Source of the DNA: Candidatus Sulfomarinibacteraceae bacterium
Lineage (GTDB): Bacteria > Acidobacteriota > Thermoanaerobaculia > Thermoanaerobaculales > Sulfomarinibacteraceae
Direction of reading: 5' to 3'
DNA: 64,000 nucleotides
Assembly (NCBI GenBank): GCA_963823345.1
Contig: CAWGLE010000013.1
Location: forward strand, 542,517 to 606,516
The position numbers were made by a program, and so were the translations under genes. The notes under the pieces are model-generated. The model saw only the letters and a program-made list of their open reading frames with translations, searched no databases and was not told where the DNA came from. Shown here piece by piece: positions 26,839 to 47,428 of the stretch; position 1 is the first letter of the stretch; each line of letters begins with the position of its first letter.

Positions 26839-27774
26839 TCAACCCCCTCCGATCGACGCGCGGATGACCTTGTAGCCGTCAGCCTCGAAGGCTGCTGCAA
26901 CGGCTTCCTGGACCTCCTCGTCCGGGGCCAGGGCCGACATGTAGCCGCCGCGGCCGCCGCCGGTGAGCTTGGCACCGAGGGCGCCCATCGCTAGAGCGCG
27001 CTCGCACAGTGAGACCAGGATCTCGTGCGAGAGCCCCATGTCGATGAGTATCGAGTGGTTGGCCGTCATCAGAGACCCCACGGTTTCCAGATCGTAGCGC
27101 TCGAGCGCCGCCTTCATGGCTCGGGACTGGTCCGTGATGGTGTTCATGATCTCCTGGAACCCTTCAGGGTCCCGCTCCCTGATCGCGAGGACGAAACCGT
27201 CCAACTTCGTTGTGTCGGCGGTGACGCCGCTGTTGGCGAGGACCCATCGAATCGGGCGCTCGACGTCGATCCTCTCGAAGCGCTTCTTACCGTCTTCGAT
27301 CCAGTACTGCAGCAAGCCCCCGTAGGTGGAGGCCGTGTTGTCGACCCCGCTCGGGATGCCGTGGTAGGCGAACTCGCCCTCCCAACCGATCCGGTTGATC
27401 TCCTCGATTGACAGACCGAGGGCGAATTCGTCGTTCAGCGCCCGGGCCAGCGACACGCAGCTCGCGGCGCTGGCCCCCACCCCACTGCCGGCCAGCAGCG
27501 ACCCACCGTAGGTGATCTTGATCGGCGTCCTGGTAGCGTCGATGCCCGTGACTTCGAGCACGCGGTTGATCGACTCCACCTGTTGGTGCTTCTTTTTCTC
27601 CTTGTAGCCCGGGACCTCGTGGCGGTTGTCCTCGAGCACCCATCCGGCGCCGTCGATCCGCTCCACCGCACACTCGGTTTCGAAGGGCAGGGCGGCCACG
27701 ATGGCGGGGACCCCGCGGAGGACGAACTGGTCGCCGATGAGAATTGTCTTGCCGAAGCCGGTTCCTGTGCCCAT
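26839..27774 (-). CDS. mvk: mevalonate kinase (GHMP family)
   Basis: Motifs GKTILIGDQFV (motif I variant), AGSGVGASAA, HGIPSGVDN, GAKLTGGGRGG. RBS GGAGG precedes ATG 27774. Confidence 0.75.
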   Translation of the reverse strand: MGTGTGFGKTILIGDQFVLRGVPAIVAALPFETECAVERIDGAGWVLEDNRHEVPGYKEKKKHQQVESINRVLEVTGIDATRTPIKITYGGSLLAGSGVGASAASCVSLARALNDEFALGLSIEEINRIGWEGEFAYHGIPSGVDNTASTYGGLLQYWIEDGKKRFERIDVERPIRWVLANSGVTADTTKLDGFVLAIRERDPEGFQEIMNTITDQSRAMKAALERYDLETVGSLMTANHSILIDMGLSHEILVSLCERALAMGALGAKLTGGGRGGYMSALAPDEEVQEAVAAAFEADGYKVIRASIGGG

Positions 27775-27788
27775 GTGTCGCCTCCCGT

Positions 27789-28997
27789 TCAACGCCCGCT
27801 GAGGATCTCTTCCATCTCGGTGATCAGCTGCTCTTCCCTTCCGATCGGCAGGGTGGTGGCCGCGGTCAGGCTGTGGCAGGCGTCCGAGAAACCGCCCACC
27901 CGCGCGGTGGCCTGCGGCAGCAGGATGTCGAGACCGAGCTCACGGCCGCTGCGAATGCCCTCGCCCATCAGATCCGACACCCGCATCGAGACCTTGACCT
28001 CGCCGAAGTCGAAGGCGCCGATACCCGGGACCTGGCTGGGAATGACCTGAAAGCCGGCCAGGTATTTTTCGGGATCGACATCGAGGCTGTTCTTCACGGC
28101 GTCGAGAAAGGCGCCGATCATCTTGACCCCCATCGGAGCGAAACGGTCATGGACGTGGATCCACTGGATATGAGGCGATGTGATCATCTCGCCGGCGCGG
28201 ATCTTGCGGATTTCTTCGGCGAAGATGCGGTCCTGGACCGCACGGAGGCGATGCAGCATCTCGTAGGAGGCCGGAGAACGTCCCTCGAGACAGACTCTGA
28301 TCCCCATCTCCGGCCCGCCGTCCGCATAACCGGCGCCGCCCAGCGTGTCGAGTTCCCGCGCCATCCGGTCGACCGGGAGCCGCCCGGTGGGAGTGACCAG
28401 GACGTAGCGCTCGCCCTCGCCGTCCGCTTCGATCGCCAACCGGCCCTGGCGAACGGTGTCCAGCGCCGCCTCGCGGTTGGGGCCGACCAGCCGGCCGCCG
28501 ACGAAGAAGCGGTCGCCGACCGCCCCGATGGTGGCGGTCGCGGCGAGATCGGCGTTGGCCCCGTCCCACTCCCTGGCGAACAGGTAGCAGGTGGTGGAGG
28601 CGGTGATGTCGCGGTCGCCGCGGAGTCCGAAGATCTCCGGATCGAGGAGGTGAACCCGGTCGTCGGTCGGAAGCTCGGCCTTGTGGTGGTCGAGGATGAG
28701 CACCAGGTTGCGGCCGCGGTTGAGGTCCGAGATCAGGGGCGCGATGCGGCCCGCGAAGTCGGTGAGGACGATCAACCCGCCACTGCTTTCGAAGATCTTT
28801 TCGAGCACCACCGGATAAGGTTTTTCCAGACACACCCTTTCGACTTCGAAGCCCTTGCGCTCGAAGGCGCGGGTCAGGATCGCGCCCGACGAGAGGCCGT
28901 CGGAGTCGTTGTGGTGGAGGATCCGCGCCCTCCGGTCCGATCTCTTCTCGACCTCCGCGATGGCCCGTCGCATGGCGGCACGCAGGTCCTCGATCAC
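27789..28997 (-). CDS. DHH-family phosphoesterase
   Basis: Motifs ILHHNDSDG, VLTDFA, LILDHH, IGAVGD. GTG start with GGAGG just after the G1PDH stop. Confidence 0.8.
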   Translation of the reverse strand: MIEDLRAAMRRAIAEVEKRSDRRARILHHNDSDGLSSGAILTRAFERKGFEVERVCLEKPYPVVLEKIFESSGGLIVLTDFAGRIAPLISDLNRGRNLVLILDHHKAELPTDDRVHLLDPEIFGLRGDRDITASTTCYLFAREWDGANADLAATATIGAVGDRFFVGGRLVGPNREAALDTVRQGRLAIEADGEGERYVLVTPTGRLPVDRMARELDTLGGAGYADGGPEMGIRVCLEGRSPASYEMLHRLRAVQDRIFAEEIRKIRAGEMITSPHIQWIHVHDRFAPMGVKMIGAFLDAVKNSLDVDPEKYLAGFQVIPSQVPGIGAFDFGEVKVSMRVSDLMGEGIRSGRELGLDILLPQATARVGGFSDACHSLTAATTLPIGREEQLITEMEEILSGR

Positions 28998-29001
28998 GGC
29001 C

Positions 29002-30370
29002 TCAACCTCCCCCGCCGAGTTCGTCCGCAAAGGCCTCCAGGATCCCCAGCTCGGCGGCCACGTCGAGGACGGTGAATCGGTTTCTGATCCGGCGGCCCCG
29101 GCGGACCGCCGCCGCGAGCTCCACGGGTTCGATGCCGATCTGCTCCGCACGAACCGGAGCCCCCGACGCGGTCAGGGCGTGCCACACCCCGCGGCCGACG
29201 GCGAGGGTGTGGCGGATTTCGTCCTTGATCGCATCCTGGTGCAGACACAGACGCGCGAGATCACGCGGCGAACGACCTTCGAGCTTGGCCCGCCACTGCG
29301 GCCACACCGCGTCCGCGAGGTTCCCGAAATCCCCCCGGAGCTCGCGCTCCGCCGCCTCGAGCGAGACATCCGGGGTGCGACCGACGGCGCAGAAATCCAC
29401 GTTGAGGATCCTCGAGTACAGCTCGTCCATCACCAACGAGGCGACCCCTACCTGGGCGCCGTGGAGGTTGGTGGGCCGGCCGTCGCGCTGTCGCGTCATG
29501 TCCCAGTAGTGGGACAGCAGGTGTTCGCCCCCCGACGCCGGGCTCGAGGTTCCGGTGACCGCCATCGACAGCCCCGAGATCAGCAGCAGCTGGAAGAGGA
29601 GGATTACCGCGCCGGGATCGTCTGCAGCGAGCCCGGGAAAGATATCGAGCGCGCGCTGGAACGGCGCCGACAGCAGCCGGTCGGGCATCGGGCAGTGGTA
29701 CTCGCCCTTGACCAGCGAGGCGATCTTCCAGTCGCAGCCGCAGTAGGGCTTGGACACCAGATCGCCGAGACCCGCCAGGGTGAGCTCTCGCGGTGCGCAC
29801 ATCAGGACCTCGGGATCGGCGAAAACGGCGACCGGCGGAGTGGCCTCGCGGGTGGTCTTGAGGCCGTTTTCGAGCAGGGCCACGATGGCCGACGTGTAAC
29901 CGTTCATCGACGCGGCGGTGGCGACCACGACGTACGGCCGGCCGCGGCGGTGGGCCAGCTCCTTGGTGAGATCGTTGACCGTGCCGCTGCCCACCGCGAT
30001 GTAGAAATCGTAGGCGTCCCGGTACGCCGCCTCCAGTGCGTCCACGAGCTCGACCGAGGCGTGGATGTGGCCGTCCGGGCCGTCTTCGAGAAGACAGCGT
30101 TCGACGTCGAAATCGCGCGCCCGAGCGCCGCCGCGACGTCGTCGCCCGCCGCCTCCCACGTCCGCGAGTCGGCAACCAGCAGCGCACGCTTGCCCGGGAA
30201 CGAGCGACGGCAGGCTCTCCGCCATGCGATCGACGGCTCTCGCGGTCGATCACGACCTCCCGGGTGAGGATCCGGTGCTCGCGGCCGCAGGTGCACGGCA
30301 ACTCGCGCCCCAACACCCGGTCGCTGAGGATCTCGGCCACGGTGGTGGGAATCGAGCTGACGGGGATCAT
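29002..30370 (-). CDS. sn-glycerol-1-phosphate dehydrogenase (AraM/EgsA family); apparent frameshifts at ~30240, ~30205, ~30120
   Basis: N-terminal CTCGREH; LLVADSRT; IAVGSGTVNDLTK; TAASMNGYTS; PASGGEHLLSHYWDM; LHGAQVG. Confidence 0.82.
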
Positions 30371-30516
30371 CCACGCCAGAGTACCCCGGCGCCGCGATTC
30401 TCACCATCTCCGACGCGCAGCCGATCCTCGCGCCGCTACCGGCAATTTCTGTTACCTTTGACTCAGGTCGAAGCGTGGTGGCCAAACAATCGATCGCCCT
30501 GCGAAGCCGGTACGGC

Positions 30517-33454
30517 ATGAACAGCGAGGAGTTTTCCTCGCTGATGCAGCACCGCATCATCGAGATCCTGCTGGTGGCCTCGCACTACGACTCGTTCATC
30601 CTCGAGGAGGACGGCCAGCTCACCGAACTCGTCATCGAGGAGTACCGCAATCTCGACCTCAACCTGAGGTTCGCGCCACGATTCGCCCGCGCCGCTTCGG
30701 CCGCCGAGGCGCTCCGCCTGATCGATGAGCGCGACTTCGACATGGTCATCACCACGCCGCGCATGCCCGACATGGAAATCACCGAGCTGGTCCAGAAGAT
30801 CAAGGCGGCCGAGCCGACCTTACCGGTGGGACTGATCGCCGCTCACGCATGGGAGCTGCCGTGGCTGGAGGGCGTACGATCGAGCGGCGACCTCGACTGG
30901 ACCTTTTTGTGGCAGGGCAACGTGCAGGCCCTGCTCGCGATGATCAAACAGGTCGAGGACCGCCGCAACGCGGAACGCGACATCCTCGAGGGCGGAGTCC
31001 AGGCCATCATCCTGGTCGAGGACGAACCGCGCTTCTACTCGATCTACCTGCCCCACTTCTACACCGAAATCACGAGCCAGACCGGGCGCCTGATGTCGGA
31101 AGGCATCAACCTGTCACACCGCCTGTTGCGGATCCGCGCGCGGCCGAAGATCCTTCTCGCCCAGAATTACGAGGAGGCGTGGGCGCTGTATGAACGCTAC
31201 GCGGGGAACGTGCTCGGGATCATCACCGACGTCAGTTTTCCGCGCGACGGCGTGCTCGACCCGGAGGCGGGGATCCGCCTCGCCGAACGAATCCGAGCTC
31301 TCGACGAGGACATTCCGATTCTCATTCAATCTATGGAGGATGAGCACGCCGAGCAGGCCCTCACGATCGGACGCCGAGTTCATGAGCAAACGCTCGCCGC
31401 AGTTGCTCGAAGGACTCCGGCAGTACATCCTCGACCACTTCGGTTTCGGCGATTTCGTCTTCAAGCTCCCCGACGGCACCGAACTCAAGCGTGCGTCCGG
31501 CATGCGCTCATTTCTGCAGGCACTGGCCGAGGTCCCGGACGAGTCACTGGTTTTCCACGCCGGCCGCAACCACTTCTCAGCCTGGCTCAAGGCACGCACC
31601 GAGTTCGAGCTGGCGACCATGCTCCGTCCCCGCCAGGTGACCGAGTTCGCTACACCCTCGGACCTTCGCACCTTCCTGATCTCGACCATCACCGGCTACC
31701 TGCGCGAGATCCAGCAGCACGTCATCACCGATTTCGACGGCCAGAGGTTCAACGACTTCACCGCCTTCGCGAAGATCGGGTCGGGTTCGCTCGGCGGCAA
31801 GGGCCGCGGTCTCGCCTTCATGCACAAGATCCTCGCCCGCGACCTTCTCGATACCGACCAGGTGGAGATCGCGATTCCGCAGACAGTGGTGCTCGCCTCG
31901 GACCTCTTCGAGGAGTTCCTGGAAAGCAACCGACTGCGCGGGTTCGTCACCCGCTCCGCGGACATGGCGGACCAGCAGGTCCTCGACTACTTCCGGCGCG
32001 CCCGATTCGGACACTCGTTGCGGAGCGACCTGGGCACGTTCCTCGAACGGGTCGCCGATCCCCTGGCCATCCGTTCGTCGAGCATTCTCGAGGACTCGGT
32101 CTACCAGCCCTTCGCCGGCGTCTACGCCACCGTCATGCTGCCCAACAATCACCCATCCCTTGACGTCCGTCTCGCGCAATTGTTGGAGGCGATCAAGGTC
32201 GTGTACGCCTCCACCTTCTTCCAGACCGCGCGGGACTACCTGGAGACCACCCCCTACCGGATCGAAGAAGAACTGATGGCGGTGCTTGTCCAGCGGCTGG
32301 TCGGGAGTCGTCGCGGCGACCGTTTCTACCCGACATTCTCGGGCACCGCCTCGTCCTACAACTTCTATCCGTTCGGCGACATGAAGCCGGAAGACGGTGT
32401 CGCTCAGGTGGCGCTCGGGCTCGGCAAATCGGTGGTGGAGGGTTTCGAGGCGCTTCGTTTCTGTCCGCGCCACCCCGGATCGTTGCCGCAGTTTTCATCC
32501 GTCAAGGACATCCTCCGCAACGCCCAGCGGCGCTTTTACGCGCTCGATCTTTCACGCAACGACGTCATCCCGGACATCAGGACCGACGCCAACCTCCTCC
32601 ACGAGGAAACGATGGAGGCGATCCGCGACGGCTCGGCGACCCACATCGCTTCCACGTACGACCGTGCCAACGACCGGGTCGTCTCGGGTCTCCAACCCGG
32701 CGGCTCGCCGCTGATCACCTTCGACTTTCTGCTCCGCGGGCGGATTATCCCGCTCCCCGATATCCTGACGAAACTGCTCGACACCTGCCAACAGGGGCTC
32801 GCGAGCCCTGCGGAGCTCGAGTTCGCGGCCGACATCGACCCTCGCCTGGGTCACCGGCAGACTTTCAACGTGCTGCAGTTGCGCCCGATGGTCTTCGAGG
32901 ACATGGACGTGGAGGTCGACCTCGACGAGTCGATGGACTCCCGGACGGTCGTTCGCTCCGAGGTGGCCCTCGGGCACGGACGGCGCGAAACCATCTCGGA
33001 TCTCGTGGTGGTGGATCCGCGCCGCATCGACCGTGCCCTCACGGCGGAGGTGGCCGTGGCGATCGAGCGGATCAACCGTCAGCTGCGGCGCGACGGCCGC
33101 CACTCGATTTTGATCGGGCCCGGACGCTGGGGCTCCCGGGACTCGTGGCTCGGGATCCCGGTGACCTGGCCGCAGATCTCCTCGGTCCGCGCGATCGTCG
33201 AAACCGATTTTCTCGACCTCCAGGTGGAGCCGTCCCTCGGGTCGCACTTCTTCCACAATCTCACCTGTTTCGGGGTGGCGTTCTTCGCCGTCCACCAACT
33301 CGAAAGTGCGGGAACCATCAACTGGGAGTGGCTGGATCGCCAGACCGCCCTGGATTCTGCCATGGACGGAACGATCCGCCACATTCGCCTCGACCGACCG
33401 GCCCAGGTCCTGGTCGACGGTTCAACTGGTCGGGGTGTCATTCTCGAGCCGTGA
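30517..33454 (+). CDS. tandem receiver domains + PEP-synthase/PPDK N-terminal ATP-grasp domain protein; apparent frameshift ~31370
   Basis: REC2 motifs IILVEDE..IITDVSFP..ILIQS..FMSK. ATP-grasp motifs LGGKGRGL, LAIRSSSILED..FAGVYAT, MAVLVQ, ALGLGKSVV, ELEFA..LQLRP. C-terminal GPGRWGS..SLGSHFFHNL. Alternative GTG start at 30475. Confidence 0.85.
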
Positions 33455-33465
33455 CGTGACCGTGA

Positions 33466-34954
<1,489 letters not shown>

Positions 34955-34956
<2 letters not shown>

Positions 34957-35013
34957 AACGGCGGCCCATTGAATCCCGAGCTCATTTCGGCGGTCCTTCG
35001 GGGCCGCCGTTTT
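34955..35013 (+). terminator. stem-loop after gdhA
   Basis: AAAACGGCGGCCC ... GGGCCGCCGTTTT inverted repeat followed by T-rich repeats. Confidence 0.55.
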
Positions 35014-35015
35014 CA

Positions 35016-35119
35016 GTTTTGAGTTTTGAATTTTGAGTTTTGAATTCCCATCCATCCAGATCCTGGCCAGTAGGGAATGGTGGCCGTCATTCCGAATTCC
35101 GAATTCCGAATTCCGCATT
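35016..35119. repeat. GTTTTGA and TTCCGAA heptamer arrays between the two gdh genes
   Basis: GTTTTGAGTTTTGAATTTTGAGTTTTGAATT and ATTCCGAATTCCGAATTCCGAATTCCGCATT. Confidence 0.85.
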
Positions 35120-35160
35120 CTGTTGGCGTTGTGCGATCATCGTTGGCAGGAGGATCCACA

Positions 35161-36450
35161 ATGAGCGAATCCGCCTCCTTCAACCCCTTTGCGGATGCCC
35201 GGGCCCAGTTCGACCGCCTGGCCGATCTCATGGGTCTGGATGCCGCGACCCGCGCGCTCCTCCGCACCCCCGCCCACGAGCACCATCTGACGCTCCCGGT
35301 GCGGCTCGACGACGGCTCGGTGGAGGTCTTCCACGGCTTCCGGGTTCAGCACAACGATGCCCGCGGGCCGGCCTGGGGCGGCGTCCGTTTCCACCCGCAG
35401 GAAACCATCGACACCATCCGCGCCCTCGCCATGTGGACGGCATGGAAGACGGCGGTTGTCGACATCCCTCTCGGCGGCAGCATGGGCGGGGTGGTGTGCG
35501 ACCCCCACCGGCTCAGCAACCAGGAGATCGAACGCATCTGCCGCGCGTGGATCCGCCGGGTCGCGCGCACGATCGGCCCCCACCGCGACGTCCCCGCCCC
35601 CGACATGATGACCTCGAGCCAGCACATGACCTGGATGCTCGACGAGTACGAGACGTTGCTCGGCTGCCGGTTACCGGGCGCCATCACCGGCAAGACCCTC
35701 GGCGCCGGCGGGTCGCTCGGCCGCCTCCAGGCGGCCGGGTACGGTCTGGTCTACACCCTTCGTGAAGCCCTCAATGAAATCGGGATGGAACCCGCCAGCA
35801 CGACCGCCAGTGTCCAGGGTTTCGGCACGGTCGGCCAGCACGCGATCGAGCTCTACACCCAGATCGGCGGCACCGTGACCTGTGTTGCGAGCTGGGACGC
35901 AGCGGCCGGCCGCGCCGTGAGCTATCGCAAAAACGACGGCATCGATCTCGCCGAGCTGAAAAGCGCCAGCGACCGTCTCGGGAACATCCAACCGGAGAAG
36001 GCGCGCGCCCTCGGCTATGAGGAGCTCGAGGGCGGGGCCTGGCTGTCTCAGGAGGTCGACATCCTGATTCCGGCCGCCCTCGAAGACCAGATCACCGCCG
36101 CCAACGTCGCGACCATCGACCCGAGGGTCCGAATCCTCGCCGAGGGGGCCAACGGTCCGACATCCGCGGCCGCCGAAGCGGCTCTGATCGAGCGCGGCGT
36201 CTACGTCCTCCCCGACCTCGTGGCCAGCGCGGGCGGCGTGACCTGCTCCTACTTCGAGCAGGTCCAGAGCACCATGAACTACTACTGGCCGCTGTCGGAG
36301 GTGCTGTCGAAGCTCGACCGCAAATTGACCGCAGCCTTCATCGCCATCTCGGATCTCGCGCGCACCAAGAAGCTCTCGATGCGGGACGCGGCCCTGGTGA
36401 TCGCGATCGACAGGGTCGCGGAGCAGTGCCGGGAACGGGGATGGCTCTGA
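35161..36450 (+). CDS. Glu/Leu/Phe/Val dehydrogenase-family protein with degenerate active site (probable pseudo-enzyme / regulatory GDH subunit)
   Basis: GDH fold (FRVQHNDARGP, VPAPD, ITGK, VQGFGTVG, IPAALE, AEGANGP, AGGVTCSYFE), but GPAWGG and GGSMGG replace the GPxKGG and GGxKGG lysines. RBS AGGAGG. Confidence 0.88.
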   Translation: MSESASFNPFADARAQFDRLADLMGLDAATRALLRTPAHEHHLTLPVRLDDGSVEVFHGFRVQHNDARGPAWGGVRFHPQETIDTIRALAMWTAWKTAVVDIPLGGSMGGVVCDPHRLSNQEIERICRAWIRRVARTIGPHRDVPAPDMMTSSQHMTWMLDEYETLLGCRLPGAITGKTLGAGGSLGRLQAAGYGLVYTLREALNEIGMEPASTTASVQGFGTVGQHAIELYTQIGGTVTCVASWDAAAGRAVSYRKNDGIDLAELKSASDRLGNIQPEKARALGYEELEGGAWLSQEVDILIPAALEDQITAANVATIDPRVRILAEGANGPTSAAAEAALIERGVYVLPDLVASAGGVTCSYFEQVQSTMNYYWPLSEVLSKLDRKLTAAFIAISDLARTKKLSMRDAALVIAIDRVAEQCRERGWL

Positions 36451-36451
36451 A

Positions 36452-36553
36452 TGAGTTTTGAGTTTTTAGTTTTGAGTTTTGAGTTTCGGACCGTCATTCG
36501 AGGGCCGCTGAACGGCTTTCCGACTCAAAACTCAAAACTCAAAACTCAAAACT
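36452..36553. repeat. inverted heptamer arrays (GAGTTTT)n ... (AAAACTC)n
   Basis: TGAGTTTTGAGTTTTTAGTTTTGAGTTTTGAGTTTCGGA ... TCCGACTCAAAACTCAAAACTCAAAACTCAAAACT. Confidence 0.9.
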
Positions 36554-36611: not shown

Positions 36612-38351
36612 ATGAAGCAGGGATCGTTGCCGCGGTTTGACCGCACGTTTTTTGAGAGAGCAGATCCTCTGACCGTGATTGGCGAAGGCGAGCTTGGGGG
36701 GAAGGCCTCCGGATTACGCCAGGTTCACGAGGACATCCTGTCGCGGCTCGGCGCGGACGAGTTCCCGTACATCGAGGTCGGGGTGCCGAAGGCGGTCATC
36801 CTGACGACCGATGTCTTCGACCGTTTCATCGAGCGCAACGATCTCGCCTGGCCGGCCCTCTCCGATCTCCCCGACGACCGCATCGGCCACGCCTTCCAGC
36901 AGGCCGAGCTGCCGGCCGAGATCCTGGGCGACCTGCGGGCCCTGATCTCCGGAGTCCACGCCCCGCTCGCGGTGCGTTCCTCGAGCCTGCTCGAGGATGC
37001 GCTCGACCACCCGTTCGCCGGCGTCTACGGCACCAAGATGATCCCCAACAACGAGATCGAGGAGGATGCCCGTTTCACCCGGCTGGTGGAAGCCATCCGC
37101 TTCGTCTACGCGACCACGTTTTTTGCCGAGGCCAGGGCCTACACGGCATCCATCGGCCGGCCGGTGGGCGACGAGAAGATGGCCGTCATCATCCAGGAGG
37201 TCGTCGGTCAACGCGCCGACTGCCGTTTCTATCCGTGTGTGTCGGGAGTCGCCCGTTCGCACAACTTCTACCCCACGGGGCACGCCAAACCGTCGGACGG
37301 CGTCGTCAGTCTCGCGCTCGGGCTCGGCAAGACCATCGTCGACGGCGGGCGGAGCTGGTCGTACTCGCCGGCCTGGCCCAAGGCGCCACCGCCATTCATG
37401 GACACCGGCGAGCTGCTCAAGAACACCCAGACCCGGTTCTGGGCTGTCAACATGGGCGAACCTCCCCCGCACGACCCGATCCGCGAAACCGAGCACCTGC
37501 TGCACTGCGGGCTCGCCGAGGCGGAGGCGGACGGTGCGCTGCGCTACCTGGTTTCCACCTACGATGCCGGCTCCGACCGGCTCAACCCGGGACTCGATGC
37601 GCGGGGCCCGCGGGCTCTGACATTCGCGCCGATCCTCGGTTCCCGGCTGATGCCGTTCAACGCGCTCATCCGGCGGCTGCTGGATCTCTCGGAAGAGGTC
37701 CTCGAGTCACCGGTCGAGATCGAGTTCGCGATCAATCTCGACCGCAGGGAGGCGCTGCCCGCCCGCCTCGGATTTCTCCAGGTCCGGCCGATGATGGTCG
37801 CGGGCGAACGGGTCGACGTCACGGCTGACGATCTGCTCGGCGACGATGTCCTGCTGGCGACCGACAAGGCCCTGGGGAACGGGGCCCGGGGCGATCTCGT
37901 CGACGTCGTGTTCATCCGGCCGGAGGCGTTCGACCCGGCGGCCACGCCGCAGATCGCCAGGGAGCTCGAACAGATCAACCACGAACTGGTGGCGGCCGGG
38001 CGCAACTACGTACTGATCGGCTTCGGGCGGTGGGGCACCTCCGACCCGCCCCTCGGGATCCCGGTGGCGTGGGGCCAGATCAGCGGCGCCAGGGTGATCG
38101 TCGAAGCGACCCTGCCGGACGTCCAACCGGACCTCAGCCAGGGCTCGCACTTCTTCCACAACCTGCTCAGCTTCCAGGTGCTCTACCTTTCGGTCGAGCA
38201 CCACGGACCGTACCGGATCGACTGGCCGTGGCTGACCTCGCAACCCGTGGCAGAATCGGCGGCACACGTTACCCATGTGCGGCTCAAATCGCCGCTGTCG
38301 GTGCGGGTCGACGGCGCAACCGGCCGAGGAGTGATTTCAACCCATGACTGA
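36612..38351 (+). CDS. stand-alone PEP-synthase/PPDK N-terminal ATP-grasp domain protein
   Basis: Motifs LGGKASGL, LAVRSSSLLED..FAGVYGT, MAVIIQ, ALGLGKTIV, EIEFA..LQVRP, GFGRWGT..SQGSHFFHNL. No pyruvate-binding barrel. Confidence 0.88.
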   Translation: MKQGSLPRFDRTFFERADPLTVIGEGELGGKASGLRQVHEDILSRLGADEFPYIEVGVPKAVILTTDVFDRFIERNDLAWPALSDLPDDRIGHAFQQAELPAEILGDLRALISGVHAPLAVRSSSLLEDALDHPFAGVYGTKMIPNNEIEEDARFTRLVEAIRFVYATTFFAEARAYTASIGRPVGDEKMAVIIQEVVGQRADCRFYPCVSGVARSHNFYPTGHAKPSDGVVSLALGLGKTIVDGGRSWSYSPAWPKAPPPFMDTGELLKNTQTRFWAVNMGEPPPHDPIRETEHLLHCGLAEAEADGALRYLVSTYDAGSDRLNPGLDARGPRALTFAPILGSRLMPFNALIRRLLDLSEEVLESPVEIEFAINLDRREALPARLGFLQVRPMMVAGERVDVTADDLLGDDVLLATDKALGNGARGDLVDVVFIRPEAFDPAATPQIARELEQINHELVAAGRNYVLIGFGRWGTSDPPLGIPVAWGQISGARVIVEATLPDVQPDLSQGSHFFHNLLSFQVLYLSVEHHGPYRIDWPWLTSQPVAESAAHVTHVRLKSPLSVRVDGATGRGVISTHD

Positions 38352-41300
38352 CCGTGACGTCGACAAGTTGCTGACCTCCCTCCAGGAACGCGCCAAGGAG
38401 CTCAACTGTCTTTACGAGGTCGAGCAGATCCTCGCGCGGCTCGACCTCCCGCTCGCTGACGCCTTCCAAAAAGTCGTCGAAGTCATCCCTCCGGGCTGGC
38501 AGTACCCGGACGTCTGCCGGGCGATGATCGAGCACAACGGCAAAGTCTACACGCAGGAGGAGTTCCGGCCGACTCCGTGGGTGCAATCGAGCGACATCGT
38601 GGTTCAGGGCGCCGTGGTCGGCGGTCTCAGCGTCTGGTACACCCAGGAGAGGCCCAAGGAGGACATCGGCCCATTTCTGAACGAAGAGGATCGCCTCATT
38701 CGAACCATCGCCGAGCGTCTCGGCCAGAGCATCCTCTTTCACCGGATGTACGAGACGCGGCTGAAATGGGAGGAGGCCAACCGCGAGCTCGCCGCTGAGA
38801 AGGAAGACCGGTGGCGGGCGCCCATCGAACTGTTGCGGCGCTCTGACCGCGAGCTCTATCTCCGCATCGCCCGCAAGATGGTCAACCATCTGTGCTGGGC
38901 CGGCGTCGAAGGCGCCCAGGAGTTACTGCAGGAGATCTATGGCTTGACGGACGACGAGGGAGTCCGCGACTTGAACGTTCCGGCGCGTTCGCGGATGCTC
39001 AACGAGAAAGTCCTGTTGTCCGGCAAACCCTTCGAACTGGCGCGGCGTTACCTCGGCTCGGACGTGCTGATTTCACTGACCCAGAACTGGGTGATGGAGG
39101 ACAAGGCGAGCTTCCTTCCTGCCGTCCTCAACAACCCGCGATCCTCGCTGTCGGAGGTGGCCGGTGCCGTCCGTCGTTTTCACCACCTCCTCGCCGACGA
39201 TACCGTACTTTCCGCAGCCACCCTCGACCGGATTCACGTCGGGCTGATCCGCCGCTTCCTCACCGATCAGCTGCACTTCATCTCGGTGGCAAAGAAGTAC
39301 ATCCGGACCGAGGACTTCATCGAACTCATCGACCGGGTGGTCCAGTCCGACGCGAGCCACGGCAGGCTCGGCGGTAAGAGCGCCGGGCTGTTCCTCGCCG
39401 AGGCCATCCTGCGCCGTGACGGGTCAAAGGACCGCCCGATCGGGGAAGTCAAAGTCCCGCGCAGCTGGTACGTCGCGTCCGAGGGTCTCATGCGGTTCAT
39501 CGAGTTCAACGATCTCGATGAAGTACCGCAGCAGAAGTACCGCGAGACGTCGCAGGTACGGCAGGAGTTTTCCAACATCATCCAGCTGTTCAAGAACTCA
39601 CGATTCCCGCCGGAGATCGTCAAGGGTGTGTCGATGATCCTCGACGAGGTCGGTGACAGGCCCCTCATCGTGCGGTCTTCGAGCCTGCTCGAGGACCGGA
39701 TGGGATCGGCGTTTTCCGGCAAGTACCGCAGCCTGTTCATCGCCAACCAGGGCACCAAGAACGAGCGAATGCGGGCCATTCTCGACGCCATGACGGAGGT
39801 CTACGCCTCGGTCTTCGGGCCGGACCCCATCGCCTACCGGCGCGAGCGGGGGCTTCTCGATTTTCACGAGGAGATGGGGATCCTGGTCCAGGAGGTCGTC
39901 GGCACCCGTCTCGGGAACTACTACCTCCCGGCAGTGGCCGGAGTGGCGTTTTCCAACAACGAGTTCCGGTGGTCGCCGCGCATCCGGCGCTCGGACGGGC
40001 TGATCCGGATGGTTCCGGGGTTGGGGACCCGTGCCGTCGACCGGGTCGGCGACGACTACCCGATCCTCGCGGTGCCAGGCCAACCGGGACTCCGGGTCAA
40101 CACGACGATCGACGAGGTGATCCGCTACTCACCCCGCTCCGTCGATGTCATCAACCTCGAGACCAACTCCTTCGAGACGGTCGAACTCAGGGAGCTCCTG
40201 CGCTCGCATGGCACCGAGTTCCCGGCGTTTGAAAACGTCTTCTCGGTGCTCAAGGACGACGTCCTCCACAAACCGGTCAAGCTCCTCGTCGACACCGCCC
40301 GCGACAACCTGGTGGCCGACCTCGGGGGGTTGATCGGCTCGACGCCTTTCGTTCAGCACGTGGGAAACATCCTCCGCATCCTCGAAGCGGCCCTCGGCAC
40401 GCCGGTCGACATCGAGTTCGCCCACGACGGGCGCGACTTCTACCTCCTGCAGTGCCGTCCGCAGAGCTTCGCCGCCGAGGACGCCCCGGCGCCGATCCCC
40501 AAGGACGTGCTGGAGGAGGACACGCTGTTTGCAGCCCACCGATACGTCTCCAACGGCCGGGTGCCGGACATCACCCACGTGGTCTACGTGAACCCGGAGA
40601 GCTACGCCGGCCTGCGCAACCGCTCCGACCTCGTGGCGGTCGGTGAAGCGGTCGGCAAGCTCAACAAGCTGCTGCCCAAACGCCAGTTCATCCTCATGGG
40701 CCCGGGCCGGTGGGGCAGCCGCGGCGATATCCGGCTCGGCGTCAATGTCGGCTACTCCGACATCAACAACACCGCGATGCTGATCGAGATCGCCCGCCAG
40801 ACCGGAGATTACCTGCCCGATCTGAGCTTCGGGACCCACTTCTTCCAGGACCTCGTCGAGTCGGCGATCCGCTACCTGCCGCTCTACCCGGACGCCGACA
40901 GCACGCTCAACCTCCGCCTGCTCCACGCCTCCCCGAATCTTCTCGGCGCCATGCTGCCGGAGTATGCCCACCTCGCCGACTGCATCCGCGTCGTCGACAT
41001 CCCAGGCGCCAGCGGCGGGCGCGTGCTGCGGGTCCTCATGAACTCCGACCTCGACGAGGCGATCGGGATGCTCGCATCCCCGGAACAACGCGTGACCGAA
41101 ATCAGCCCCGGGAGCATGGGGAAGATCCCGCCCAACCCGGAGGGGTTCTGGAGGTGGCGTATGCAGATGGCCGAGCATATCGCGCACGAACTCGACCCGG
41201 ACCGTTTCGGCGTCGCCGCGATGTACGTGCTCGGCAGCACCAAGAACGCCAGCGCGGGGCCCGCCAGCGACATCGACCTCCTGCTCCACCACCGGGGCAC

Positions 41301-41520
41301 GCCGGAGCAACGCCACGATCTCGAGATCTGGCTGCAGGGGTGGAGCCTCGCCCTCGGCAAGGTGAACTACCTCCGCACCGGTTACACGAACCCCGAGCTG
41401 CTCGACGTGCACATCATCACCGACGACGACATCGCGCAGCGGACCTCGTTTGCCGCCAAGATCGACGCCGTCACCGACGCTGCCCTCGAGCTGCCCCTCG
41501 GGCCCCGCACTCGGGATTGA
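38344..41520 (+). CDS. GAF-like + PEP-synthase/PPDK ATP-grasp + C-terminal nucleotidyltransferase domain protein
   Basis: N-terminal LQERAKELNCLY..IPPGWQYP..GPFLNEE. ATP-grasp LGGKSAGL, IVRSSSLLED..FSGKY, DIEFA..LQCRP. GPGRWGS..SFGTHFFQDL. C-terminal LGSTKNASAGPASDIDL..LDVH. Overlaps the upstream gene by 8 bp. Confidence 0.88.
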   Translation: MTDRDVDKLLTSLQERAKELNCLYEVEQILARLDLPLADAFQKVVEVIPPGWQYPDVCRAMIEHNGKVYTQEEFRPTPWVQSSDIVVQGAVVGGLSVWYTQERPKEDIGPFLNEEDRLIRTIAERLGQSILFHRMYETRLKWEEANRELAAEKEDRWRAPIELLRRSDRELYLRIARKMVNHLCWAGVEGAQELLQEIYGLTDDEGVRDLNVPARSRMLNEKVLLSGKPFELARRYLGSDVLISLTQNWVMEDKASFLPAVLNNPRSSLSEVAGAVRRFHHLLADDTVLSAATLDRIHVGLIRRFLTDQLHFISVAKKYIRTEDFIELIDRVVQSDASHGRLGGKSAGLFLAEAILRRDGSKDRPIGEVKVPRSWYVASEGLMRFIEFNDLDEVPQQKYRETSQVRQEFSNIIQLFKNSRFPPEIVKGVSMILDEVGDRPLIVRSSSLLEDRMGSAFSGKYRSLFIANQGTKNERMRAILDAMTEVYASVFGPDPIAYRRERGLLDFHEEMGILVQEVVGTRLGNYYLPAVAGVAFSNNEFRWSPRIRRSDGLIRMVPGLGTRAVDRVGDDYPILAVPGQPGLRVNTTIDEVIRYSPRSVDVINLETNSFETVELRELLRSHGTEFPAFENVFSVLKDDVLHKPVKLLVDTARDNLVADLGGLIGSTPFVQHVGNILRILEAALGTPVDIEFAHDGRDFYLLQCRPQSFAAEDAPAPIPKDVLEEDTLFAAHRYVSNGRVPDITHVVYVNPESYAGLRNRSDLVAVGEAVGKLNKLLPKRQFILMGPGRWGSRGDIRLGVNVGYSDINNTAMLIEIARQTGDYLPDLSFGTHFFQDLVESAIRYLPLYPDADSTLNLRLLHASPNLLGAMLPEYAHLADCIRVVDIPGASGGRVLRVLMNSDLDEAIGMLASPEQRVTEISPGSMGKIPPNPEGFWRWRMQMAEHIAHELDPDRFGVAAMYVLGSTKNASAGPASDIDLLLHHRGTPEQRHDLEIWLQGWSLALGKVNYLRTGYTNPELLDVHIITDDDIAQRTSFAAKIDAVTDAALELPLGPRTRD

Positions 41521-41521
41521 G

Positions 41522-42379
41522 CTACAGCAGCTCCCTCGACGCGGATTCGAGATCGTCGGGATCGAACCGCACGACGGCGAGCTCCGGACCGTCGTGGGCC
41601 GCGGTCAGGCAGTGGGTGCGGCCGATCAGGGTGCGCCAGACTCCGGTGAGCCTCGGTGCCTCGTGAATGTGGCCGTGGAGGGTGAGGAGGGGCTGGCGCG
41701 CCTCGATGAAACGCTGTATCGCGATGCTCCCCACGTGGACGTCCACCGGCACGTGGTCGACCATGCGGCCGTCGAGCGCCGCCCGGTCGAGTGACGTCCC
41801 GTACGGCGGTGAGTGAAAAAGCAGGATCGCCCGCTCGAAATCACGGCCTTCGGCGAGGCGTTCGAGATCCCCCGCGATGGTCCCGAAGCGCACGCTGTCC
41901 GGATTCACCGGAACCGTTCTCACCCCCCGTTCCGGTGACACGCACCCTGGATCGGTGAAACGCGAGACGTCATAGCGCTCCCAATCCTTGAGTTGGAACG
42001 GCGTCGGCGGCACGCAGGCATAGCCGAGCACCGGAAAGGCGCCGACGGTATGCCACCGCTCGTGGCCGTAGGTCCACAACCCCCGGGCGTCTCCGTCGAT
42101 GAACTGCGGTTCGCTGGCCCGGTCATCGTCGTTCCCGAGAACCAGAACGACCGGGGGATACCCCGTCCCCATCGTCGATCTGAGCCTGCGAAACCCGGCC
42201 GCCAGCACGTCAGGGATGAAATCTCCTGCACCGGGGACCGCACCGCGGTGGTGGGGCAGAAGGTCCCCGCCCAGGAAAACCGCGGCCGGCCGCTCGAACT
42301 CGATCAACGACCACAGCTTCTGATATCGATCGGGCCTGCCGTGCAGATCCGATACGAACACGCACCCCGTCTCGGTCAC
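41522..42379 (-). CDS. calcineurin-like metallophosphoesterase (Icc-related)
   Basis: Motifs SDLHG, LGGDL, LGNDD, FHSPP, LHGHIHE. Confidence 0.9.
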   Translation of the reverse strand: MTETGCVFVSDLHGRPDRYQKLWSLIEFERPAAVFLGGDLLPHHRGAVPGAGDFIPDVLAAGFRRLRSTMGTGYPPVVLVLGNDDDRASEPQFIDGDARGLWTYGHERWHTVGAFPVLGYACVPPTPFQLKDWERYDVSRFTDPGCVSPERGVRTVPVNPDSVRFGTIAGDLERLAEGRDFERAILLFHSPPYGTSLDRAALDGRMVDHVPVDVHVGSIAIQRFIEARQPLLTLHGHIHEAPRLTGVWRTLIGRTHCLTAAHDGPELAVVRFDPDDLESASRELL

Positions 42380-47305: not shown

Positions 47306-47428
47306 TTTTGAGTTTTCAGTTCTGAGTGTTCAGTGTCGACTGTCGAACTCTCGGTGTCGACGTACGGCGTAGCATTCAGGGAGCCCCGAAGTTCACCAAC
47401 TAAAAACTCATAACTCAAAACTCAAAAC
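47305..47428. repeat. inverted degenerate heptamer arrays between convergent stop codons
   Basis: ATTTTGAGTTTTCAGTTCTGAGTGTTCAGT ... AACTAAAAACTCATAACTCAAAACTCAAAAC; the arms abut TAA 47305 and TAG 47428. Confidence 0.85.

Follow-up and report, generated by a model that had tools for sequence, protein, structure and literature searches.

The window analysed here is a stretch of 64,000 nucleotides from the genome of a Candidatus Sulfomarinibacteraceae bacterium (Acidobacteriota; assembly GCA_963823345.1, contig CAWGLE010000013.1, positions 542,517 to 606,516 of the forward strand). In it, an intact glutamate dehydrogenase gene, gdhA, is followed by a second glutamate dehydrogenase (GDH) gene, here called GDH2, whose product lacks both of the lysines expected in the active site. 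Alongside these lie three genes for ATP-grasp proteins with a PPDK_N domain (PPDK1, PPDK2, and PPDK3) and one for a phosphoesterase (Table 1). An earlier note, made from the sequence alone, had drawn attention to GDH2 as a full-length pseudo-enzyme, and its account of the gene is borne out. The frame runs for 429 codons without a stop, a GGAGGA ribosome-binding site lies 8 nt 5' of the ATG, and the altered motifs GPAWGG (residues 69–74), GGSMGG (105–110), and QAAGYG (190–195) are found where the note had placed them.

Sequence and active-site residues of GDH2

Because GDH2 homologues of exactly 429 residues align from residue 1, the start was assigned to position 35161 and not to an upstream ATG at 35077. 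Pfam detects both domains of the ELFV (Glu/Leu/Phe/Val) dehydrogenase superfamily, namely PF02812 (ELFV_dehydrog_N; 6e-50, profile positions 2–128 of 129) and PF00208 (ELFV_dehydrog; 7.7e-57, positions 1–241 of 241), with the lysine of GGxKGG missing. When aligned by HMMER with the GDH structures of Pyrococcus furiosus, Thermococcus profundus, and T. litoralis, W72 falls opposite the lysine of GPTKGG and M108 opposite that of GGGKGG. Among entries in the protein structure database (PDB), GDH2 also matches chains of 3AOE (3aoe_A, 2.6e-93; 3aoe_E, 5.4e-62). Its score against the archaeal-type GDH equivalog NF040817 (GdhA_Arch) is 401.4 bits, below the curated cut-off of 750, and public records name its homologues 'glutamate dehydrogenase (NAD(P)+)'. 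The adjacent gdhA has GPYKGG, GGGKGG, and EATGYG, and the two proteins do belong to different subfamilies, as the note had supposed: they are 31% identical, and the best NCBIfam model is GdhA_Arch for the one and PRK09414 for the other.

In all, the genome (4.98 Mb, 27 contigs) holds four ELFV genes: gdhA, GDH2, GDH3, and a longer gene on contig C8, GDH4. GDH3, on contig C3, encodes 428 residues with both active-site lysines, and aligns with GDH2 without gaps over 425 residues at 58% identity.

Relatives of GDH2 were gathered by a word-index search from NCBI, JGI, ENA, and Logan. Among the 120 listed, which include the query, are 65–100% identical, and are almost all of 429 residues, position 72 is tryptophan in 113 and position 108 methionine in 114. 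Combined with translated genome loci, the relatives gave a 193-sequence alignment with 129 sequences of the W72 and M108 type (W/M), 62 with lysine at both positions (K/K), one with K and M (P0090), and one with K and Y (locus L072). Conservation of the two replacements in orthologues, a check proposed in the earlier note, is thus close to complete in the group of 130 sequences with M108, where K72 is replaced by tryptophan in 129 and K108 by methionine in all. The identity within this clade falls as low as 64%. The single exception, P0090 (76% identical to GDH2), is the only member with GPCKGG next to GGSMGG, and has positions 72 and 75 (K and I) in the K/K state and position 108 in the dead state; an intermediate, a reversal, and gene conversion with a K/K paralogue are all conceivable origins.

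More of the pocket has changed than the two lysines. M93, T192, and N223 vary little or not at all in 63 K/K relatives, and all three are altered in the M108 group: M93 is threonine in 105 of 130 (methionine and alanine in 11 each), T192 is alanine in 101 (threonine in 23), and N223 is another residue in 114 (threonine 71, serine 13, alanine 11, leucine 9), with asparagine in 16 as against 60 of the 63 K/K sequences. The statement in the note that the Rossmann motifs, GFGTVG (220–225) and EGANGP (328–333), are intact therefore stands for the glycines only; the asparagine of GFGN is a threonine in GDH2. Other pocket residues are retained, including R188 (129 of 130), N331 (127), and V360 (128). 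Eight positions are fixed differently in the W/M and K/K sequences (R39H, K72W, I75V, K108M, P179T, D339E, M389L, and Y412L), and none of these changes introduces a new lysine.

In the GDH of Clostridium symbiosum, the catalytic residue is Lys125 of GGxKGG, and we take the threonine of EATG (T192) and the asparagine of GxGNV (N223) to contact the nicotinamide carboxamide in that enzyme. If these contacts hold, then the geometry of hydride transfer would be degraded in the W/M clade as well. Lys89 and Ser380 of the same enzyme bind the γ-carboxylate of the substrate, Lys113 faces the α-carboxylate, and Asp165 is called the catalytic aspartate (bioRxiv 10.1101/2024.12.26.630402). By these marks of a glutamate-specific GDH, the γ-carboxylate site has W72 in place of Lys89, with the Ser380 equivalent S363 kept in 126 of 130, and the equivalents of Lys113 and Asp165 are both present, K96 in 127 (otherwise N, N, and Q) and D148 in 129. 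Judged from these residues, GDH2 is very probably inactive as a catalyst.

An AlphaFold2 model of GDH2 (mean predicted local distance difference test score, pLDDT, 79.9; predicted template modelling score, pTM, 0.80) resembles solved hexameric GDHs with template modelling (TM) scores of 0.79–0.82, the best match being 1euz_A (E 6.8e-33, TM 0.79/0.82). The pLDDT drops below 50 at the two loops that formerly carried the lysines (66–73 and 105–114), which is not seen in an equally deep control model of GDH3 (pLDDT 83.2), while low values near 143–151 and 171–186 are common to both models. Given an alignment that mixed W/M and K/K rows, the low values at the former lysine loops may be taken as a weak hint.

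Contigs from four public metagenome runs cover GDH2, among them one of 1387 nt over 35095–36482 with 26 differences, and two pieces, one over 35140–35402 with 2 differences and one over 35404–35521 with 1. Among the differences listed, which leave aside 174 with less support, none affects the W72 or M108 codon, the nearest lying at 35358, 35394, 35457, and 35490. With 129 W/M sequences and these independent contigs, the view of the note that a sequencing error is unlikely is well supported.

Estimated pairwise by NG86, the ratio of nonsynonymous to synonymous rates (dN/dS), another check the note had suggested, is 0.082–0.143 in 10 W/M pairs and thus on par with that of active K/K relatives (0.054–0.192 in 10 pairs). 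Across seven genome pairs, GDH2 (0.082–0.193) has about twice the ratio of gdhA (0.043–0.132, one gdhA pair having failed), and is similar to PPDK2 (0.101–0.224), PPDK3 (0.061–0.195), and PPDK1 (0.055–0.201). Compared with the same five genomes, GDH2 is 64–92% identical, GDH3 82–97%, gdhA 81–98%, and GDH4 74–95%. From the lower identity and the low dN/dS together, it follows that GDH2 evolves faster than the active GDHs and yet is under purifying selection. When three genome pairs were compared by domain, both domain I and the NAD domain were faster in GDH2 than in GDH3 every time, and the C-terminal segment was faster in two of the pairs; as GDH2 and GDH3 rank the first two domains alike, this is not diagnostic. 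Overall, we are confident, short of certainty, that GDH2 is non-catalytic and yet kept by selection.

The conserved module, GDH3, and the origin of the W/M clade

PPDK1, gdhA, GDH2, PPDK2, and PPDK3 share one orientation, with PPDK3 overlapping PPDK2 by 8 nt, and the Metallophos gene is convergent to them (Table 1). The three PPDK_N domains are matched at E values of 3.4e-33, 1.5e-32, and 6.3e-57, and Pfam finds neither a PEP-utilisers swivel domain nor a PEP/pyruvate domain (PEP, phosphoenolpyruvate) in any of the three proteins. All three have in common an unnamed end domain, GxGRWG...(S/T)xG(S/T)HFF(H/Q), and the 340 N-terminal residues of PPDK3 form an unknown domain. Against the PDB, the best match among these neighbours is at 2.8e-4, and PPDK2 has none. 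A predicted complex of PPDK2 (8–579) with GDH2 (4–429), computed from 25-row alignments and without controls, scored 0.01 against a mark of 0.32, a value that counts neither way on binding.

Table 1. GDH2, its two replaced codons, and the neighbouring genes in the window.
Feature	Coordinates	Strand	Basis
GDH2: 429-aa short-type (archaeal-type) GDH paralogue without both active-site lysines	35161..36450	+	Frame, Pfam, PDB alignments
W72 codon TGG, replacing the γ-carboxylate-binding Lys of GPxKGG	35374..35376	+	PDB alignments, clade conservation
M108 codon ATG, replacing the Lys of GGxKGG	35482..35484	+	PDB alignments, clade conservation
PPDK1: receiver-domain/PPDK_N ATP-grasp protein, split by one extra base near 31371	30511..33454	+	Pfam, orthologues
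gdhA: intact E. coli-type NADP-GDH (GPYKGG, GGGKGG)	33598..34956	+	NF006929, 779.5 bits (cut-off 536)
PPDK2: PPDK_N ATP-grasp protein, conserved C-terminal GFGRWG...SQGSHFFHN domain	36612..38351	+	Pfam, motif alignments
PPDK3: PPDK_N ATP-grasp protein, GPGRWG...SFGTHFFQD domain, C-terminal minimal nucleotidyltransferase (GS-x10-DID)	38344..41520	+	Pfam, motif alignments
Metallophos (calcineurin-like) phosphoesterase, convergent, conserved with the module	41522..42379	-	Pfam, gene order

The conserved module consists of a GDH, two PPDK_N ATP-grasp proteins, one of which ends in a nucleotidyltransferase, and a Metallophos phosphoesterase. All of its parts are present in the window, with a short-type GDH, the end domain in both PPDK_N proteins, the nucleotidyltransferase tail, and the convergent Metallophos gene. 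The same order of GDH, PPDK2, PPDK3, and Metallophos, but with a K/K GDH, is found in metagenome-assembled genomes (MAGs) labelled Eisenbacteria, Zixibacteria, Phycisphaerae, Fibrobacteraceae, Thermoanaerobaculia, and Euryarchaeota. Genome loci (numbered with L) numbered 80, of which 20 were W/M. PPDK2 and PPDK3 lie downstream in 18 of the 19 W/M loci with a downstream flank, and gdhA upstream in all 19 with an upstream flank (L053 ends at the gene, and L006 has just 68 nt upstream); in the other 60 loci, a PPDK-type neighbour occurs in 23 and a gdhA-type one in 9. Moreover, the partner motifs GGK, RSSSxLED, GRWG, and SHFFHN/THFFQD show no variation in either W/M or K/K loci (17 and 12 for PPDK2, 15 and 10 for PPDK3), and hence the partners are alive where the GDH is dead. 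Insertions interrupt the cluster in L001 (about 6.5 kb between gdhA and GDH2), L010 (about 3.2 kb between GDH2 and PPDK2), and L016 (about 1 kb). L042, from genome G005, has diverged furthest among the W/M members (K96Q, end branch 0.5), and has gdhA and a receiver/PPDK_N gene upstream of GDH2.

The same four ELFV genes as in the window's genome occur in five further W/M genomes, with GDH3 82–97% identical; in G005, GDH3 is in two pieces with a TGA. GDH3 is thus present in 6 of 6 W/M genomes and in 0 of 5 K/K-module genomes, in which the module GDH is the sole member of its subfamily. Its own surroundings are unrelated to the module (among them genes for thiamin pyrophosphokinase, DUF3891, phosphoglucomutase, enolase, and monomeric isocitrate dehydrogenase). 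The suspicion in the earlier note that the partner of GDH2 may not be gdhA has gained a candidate in GDH3, a stand-alone K/K enzyme of GDH2's own subfamily. By comparison with a Thermus-type regulatory subunit, an active paralogue of the same subfamily is found in all six genomes, though not adjacent to GDH2.

We placed these proteins in a 74-row tree (IQ-TREE, short search, LG+G4), built from the GDHs translated from the 80 genome loci minus eight that were short or had stops (L009, L014, L023, L035, L041, L046, L053, and L069), plus the window's GDH2 and its genome's GDH3. Here, all 17 W/M rows fall together in a single clade (SH-aLRT 100) that lies within K/K GDHs with the same downstream genes, on a stem of 0.28 that is similar to its sister stems (0.25–0.26), and the clade has a single origin. 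GDH3 groups apart from GDH2, alongside GDHs that stand alone in MAGs of Binatia and Myxococcota, and is therefore a separate lineage and no recent duplicate of GDH2.

Beyond this clade, 124 of the cluster representatives (best 150 by HMMER, clustered at 50% identity) have K, K, K, and D at positions 72, 96, 108, and 148, and K108 is missing in 15 of 132 near-full-length rows, the window included. The residue pairs at positions 72 and 108 in the K108-less rows include M/H, Q/V, G/R, L/M, R/Q, L/C, K/S, I/M, T/Q, M/M, Y/Y, Q/M, I/C, and K/R. On a tree of the 132 rows built without the motif columns, the lysine state changes at least 8 times, 6 of them forced by well-supported branches, so that lysine-less short-type GDHs are recurrent.

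The idea that every lysine-less GDH stands beside PPDK_N genes is refuted by L072, which has no such neighbour. This gene (L072:9998-11263), from a Methanomassiliicoccaceae MAG, has GGAYGG, with the catalytic lysine changed to tyrosine and K72 retained, and lies among genes for DNA polymerase X, DUF166, a RuBisCO-like protein, and a UbiA-family protein. Three distant ELFV members, only 27–29% identical to the references, have GPAVGG with GGVIGG (L127), GPGLGG (L125, genome G006), and GPALGG (L124, genome G010), with no GGxxGG motif found in the aligned part of the latter two; these may be Leu/Val-type or further lysine-less dehydrogenases.

A few other features of the window were recorded. The PPDK1 frame is split near 31371 (31330–31430) by an extra base, the A in ATCGGACGCCGAG, that three orthologous loci lack; in orthologues, the gene is a single open reading frame of about 990–1050 aa. 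None of the metagenome contigs spans the site to decide between a true frameshift and a fault of the assembly. On either side of GDH2, the intergenic regions (35009–35046 and 36452–36486, plus strand) contain tandem repeats of an AT-rich heptamer, (GTTTTGA)n, which recur at 36523–36553 (inverted) and 47408–47428 (minus strand), with 12 matches against 0.01 expected; those downstream of GDH2 form a hairpin with 31-nt arms. The repeats occupy the same intergenic places in L001, L002, L003, L005, and L009, and the metagenome contig depth at them is very high, with many loose ends. ATTCCGA is repeated four times at 35089–35116, and a terminator-like hairpin lies 3' of gdhA (34988–35009). Divergent from the operon, the genes at 26839–30225 (minus strand) encode a mevalonate kinase (scoring above the cut-off of TIGR00549), a DHH protein similar to archaeal RecJ, and an Fe-ADH_2 protein that resembles glycerol-1-phosphate dehydrogenase (NF002022, 5.8e-46, below its cut-off), which by these matches would make up an archaeal-lipid-flavoured set in an Acidobacteriota genome.

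Possible roles of GDH2

Our preferred explanation is tentative, and we put it at a little short of probable: GDH2 may be a regulatory pseudo-subunit, one that combines with GDH3 and couples this enzyme to the system of ATP-grasp, nucleotidyltransferase, and phosphoesterase proteins. The module's own GDH would have lost K72 and K108 in the ancestor of one Acidobacteriota subclade, with catalysis passing to the stand-alone paralogue GDH3. What was left would be a GDH-fold pseudo-enzyme that no longer deaminates glutamate, retained as the GDH-fold component of the module and still in possession of a hexamer-forming fold and a dinucleotide-binding domain. GDH2 and GDH3 could then assemble into mixed hexamers, in the manner of Thermus GdhA with GdhB, and the active enzyme would be controlled by the ATP-grasp, nucleotidyltransferase, and phosphoesterase system acting on or through the GDH2 subunit. 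Here, we infer both the heteromer and any tie of GDH2 to the ATP-grasp proteins beyond gene order. The suggestions in the note that GDH2 may sense a ligand and possibly provides the input for the ATP-grasp proteins likewise draw on the conserved gene order. The module and a GDH-fold protein were kept together under selection after catalysis was lost, with GDH3 present. What the module requires would thus be the GDH protein and not its catalysis, which argues that the ATP-grasp, nucleotidyltransferase, and phosphoesterase proteins act on this protein rather than on the reaction product. Taken further, the W/M clade would be a natural separation-of-function allele, the module would switch glutamate dehydrogenase by covalent modification, with a logic like that of GlnE/GlnD in the control of glutamine synthetase, and GDH2 would be the dedicated modifiable regulatory subunit of a GDH2–GDH3 hetero-hexamer; in this fuller form, we regard the proposal as unlikely.

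Several points weigh against a regulatory subunit of GDH3. The GDH3 gene is unlinked to the operon, whereas the Thermus GdhA and GdhB genes are linked, and the co-occurrence of GDH3 would be equally expected had it done no more than take over the lost catalysis. In L042, a W/M locus, PPDK2 and PPDK3 are missing from the 10 kb downstream. The residues specific to module-linked GDHs amount to 12 positions that are all explicable by phylogeny, and among these there is no obvious acceptor serine, threonine, tyrosine, or histidine. Moreover, K96 is lost in three clade members and N223 and T192 are degenerate, and so binding of ligand or cofactor in the old pocket may be gone; this may fit a scaffold better than a sensor.

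GDH2 might instead be a stand-alone pseudo-GDH that forms its own oligomer without mixing with GDH3, and directly serves the ATP-grasp and nucleotidyltransferase proteins, either as their sensor of NAD(P)(H) or an amino acid, or as their substrate or scaffold. This is a serious candidate, if on balance somewhat unlikely. It is favoured by the near-constant PPDK2/PPDK3 gene order in W/M loci and by partner proteins that are intact and constrained, as well as by a nucleotide domain in which the Gly-rich motif, E328-G-A-N331, and P304/A306/E308 are invariant (25-row alignment). The pocket, too, would suit a hydrophobic amino acid, being lined by W and M with K96 and D148, for the α-carboxylate and amino group, mostly kept, and there is a precedent in ADLP, an alanine-dehydrogenase-like protein of Thermus thermophilus (bioRxiv 10.1101/2025.10.31.685773). 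A sensor of this kind fits less well with the three losses of K96 and with the lack of conservation in the clade at T192 and N223, presumed nicotinamide contacts in C. symbiosum GDH, and it accounts for GDH3 in every checked W/M genome only as a simple replacement of catalysis.

That the hydrophobic pocket (W72, T93, M108, and A192) takes another substrate, turned over by other catalytic residues, we consider improbable. Such a neo-functionalised enzyme would agree with the fixation, rather than drift, of W and M, with the retention of D148, K96, N331, and S363, and with a dN/dS as low as in active enzymes. On the other hand, the clade-specific fixed changes bring no replacement lysine, the many residue pairs in other lysine-less lineages (M/H, Q/V, L/M, I/C, Y/Y, and so on) point to loss and not to one new chemistry, and, to our knowledge, all characterised ELFV dehydrogenases keep the GGxKGG lysine. 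Lastly, the assembly does contain one or more apparent frameshifts of a single base in the vicinity (about 31371). Even so, an explanation by sequencing error, or by a pseudogene in decay after recent inactivation, is rejected by the 129 W/M sequences from several databases, all of about 429 aa, diverging to 64% identity and of single origin, by a dN/dS of about 0.1, and by the concordant metagenome contigs.

With GDH2 and its kin, metabolic reconstructions of these Acidobacteriota from sediment and soil include an enzyme that most likely does not work. Conversely, the W/M clade amounts to an evolutionary experiment on an unstudied module that sits beside GDH genes in many phyla, and GDH2, a GDH subunit that would be free of background activity, offers an entry point to control at the carbon–nitrogen branch point.

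Comparison with known systems

Among catalytically active GDHs, RocG of Bacillus subtilis has a regulatory role. RocG and GudB resemble GDH2 as short hexameric GDHs of the same fold, which, going by the entry titles, are present in the solved complexes 7mfm (a glutamate synthase–GDH complex) and 9a5j; they differ from GDH2 in being active. As for the neighbouring proteins, their PPDK_N domain is shared with the superfamily of PEP synthase, PPDK, and rifampin phosphotransferase, and with VadK (Rv1127c) of Mycobacterium tuberculosis, which is reported to be derived from PPDK and to act as a regulatory histidine kinase in contact with enzymes of metabolism. In contrast to that superfamily, the neighbours are without a swivel or PEP/pyruvate domain by Pfam, and have instead the GRWG...SHFFHN end domain and, in PPDK3, a nucleotidyltransferase. 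Across open-access papers and bioRxiv, we found nothing on a module of GDH, dikinase, and nucleotidyltransferase, and just the Thermus work on inactive GDH subunits.

Another system comparable to GDH2 is ADLP of T. thermophilus, the alanine-dehydrogenase-like protein, which is inactive, possibly because its catalytic lysine is replaced, and which senses NAD(H) and thereby regulates a CoA transferase (bioRxiv 10.1101/2025.10.31.685773). Like GDH2, it would be an amino-acid dehydrogenase homologue with its catalytic lysine replaced and kept as a regulator, though it belongs to the alanine dehydrogenase family, its partner is a non-homologous CoA transferase, and its ligand is NAD(H).

The closest likeness is to Thermus GdhA itself (PDB ID: 3AOE), and the precedent invoked in the earlier note is a real one. 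Inactive GdhA and active GdhB of T. thermophilus form hetero-hexamers in which GdhA mediates activation by leucine, and a further inactive homologue, APRTh, adds control by AMP (PMC9570180; bioRxiv 10.1101/2025.10.31.685773). GdhA is thus an inactive GDH homologue that regulates an active short hexameric paralogue, as is suggested here for GDH2, and the GDH2 model aligns to 3aoe_A with a TM of 0.80. Both lysines are replaced (W and M) in GDH2. In contrast to Thermus GdhA, GDH2 has its candidate partner, GDH3, on another contig, and lies in an operon with a gdhA of a different subfamily and three PPDK_N proteins.

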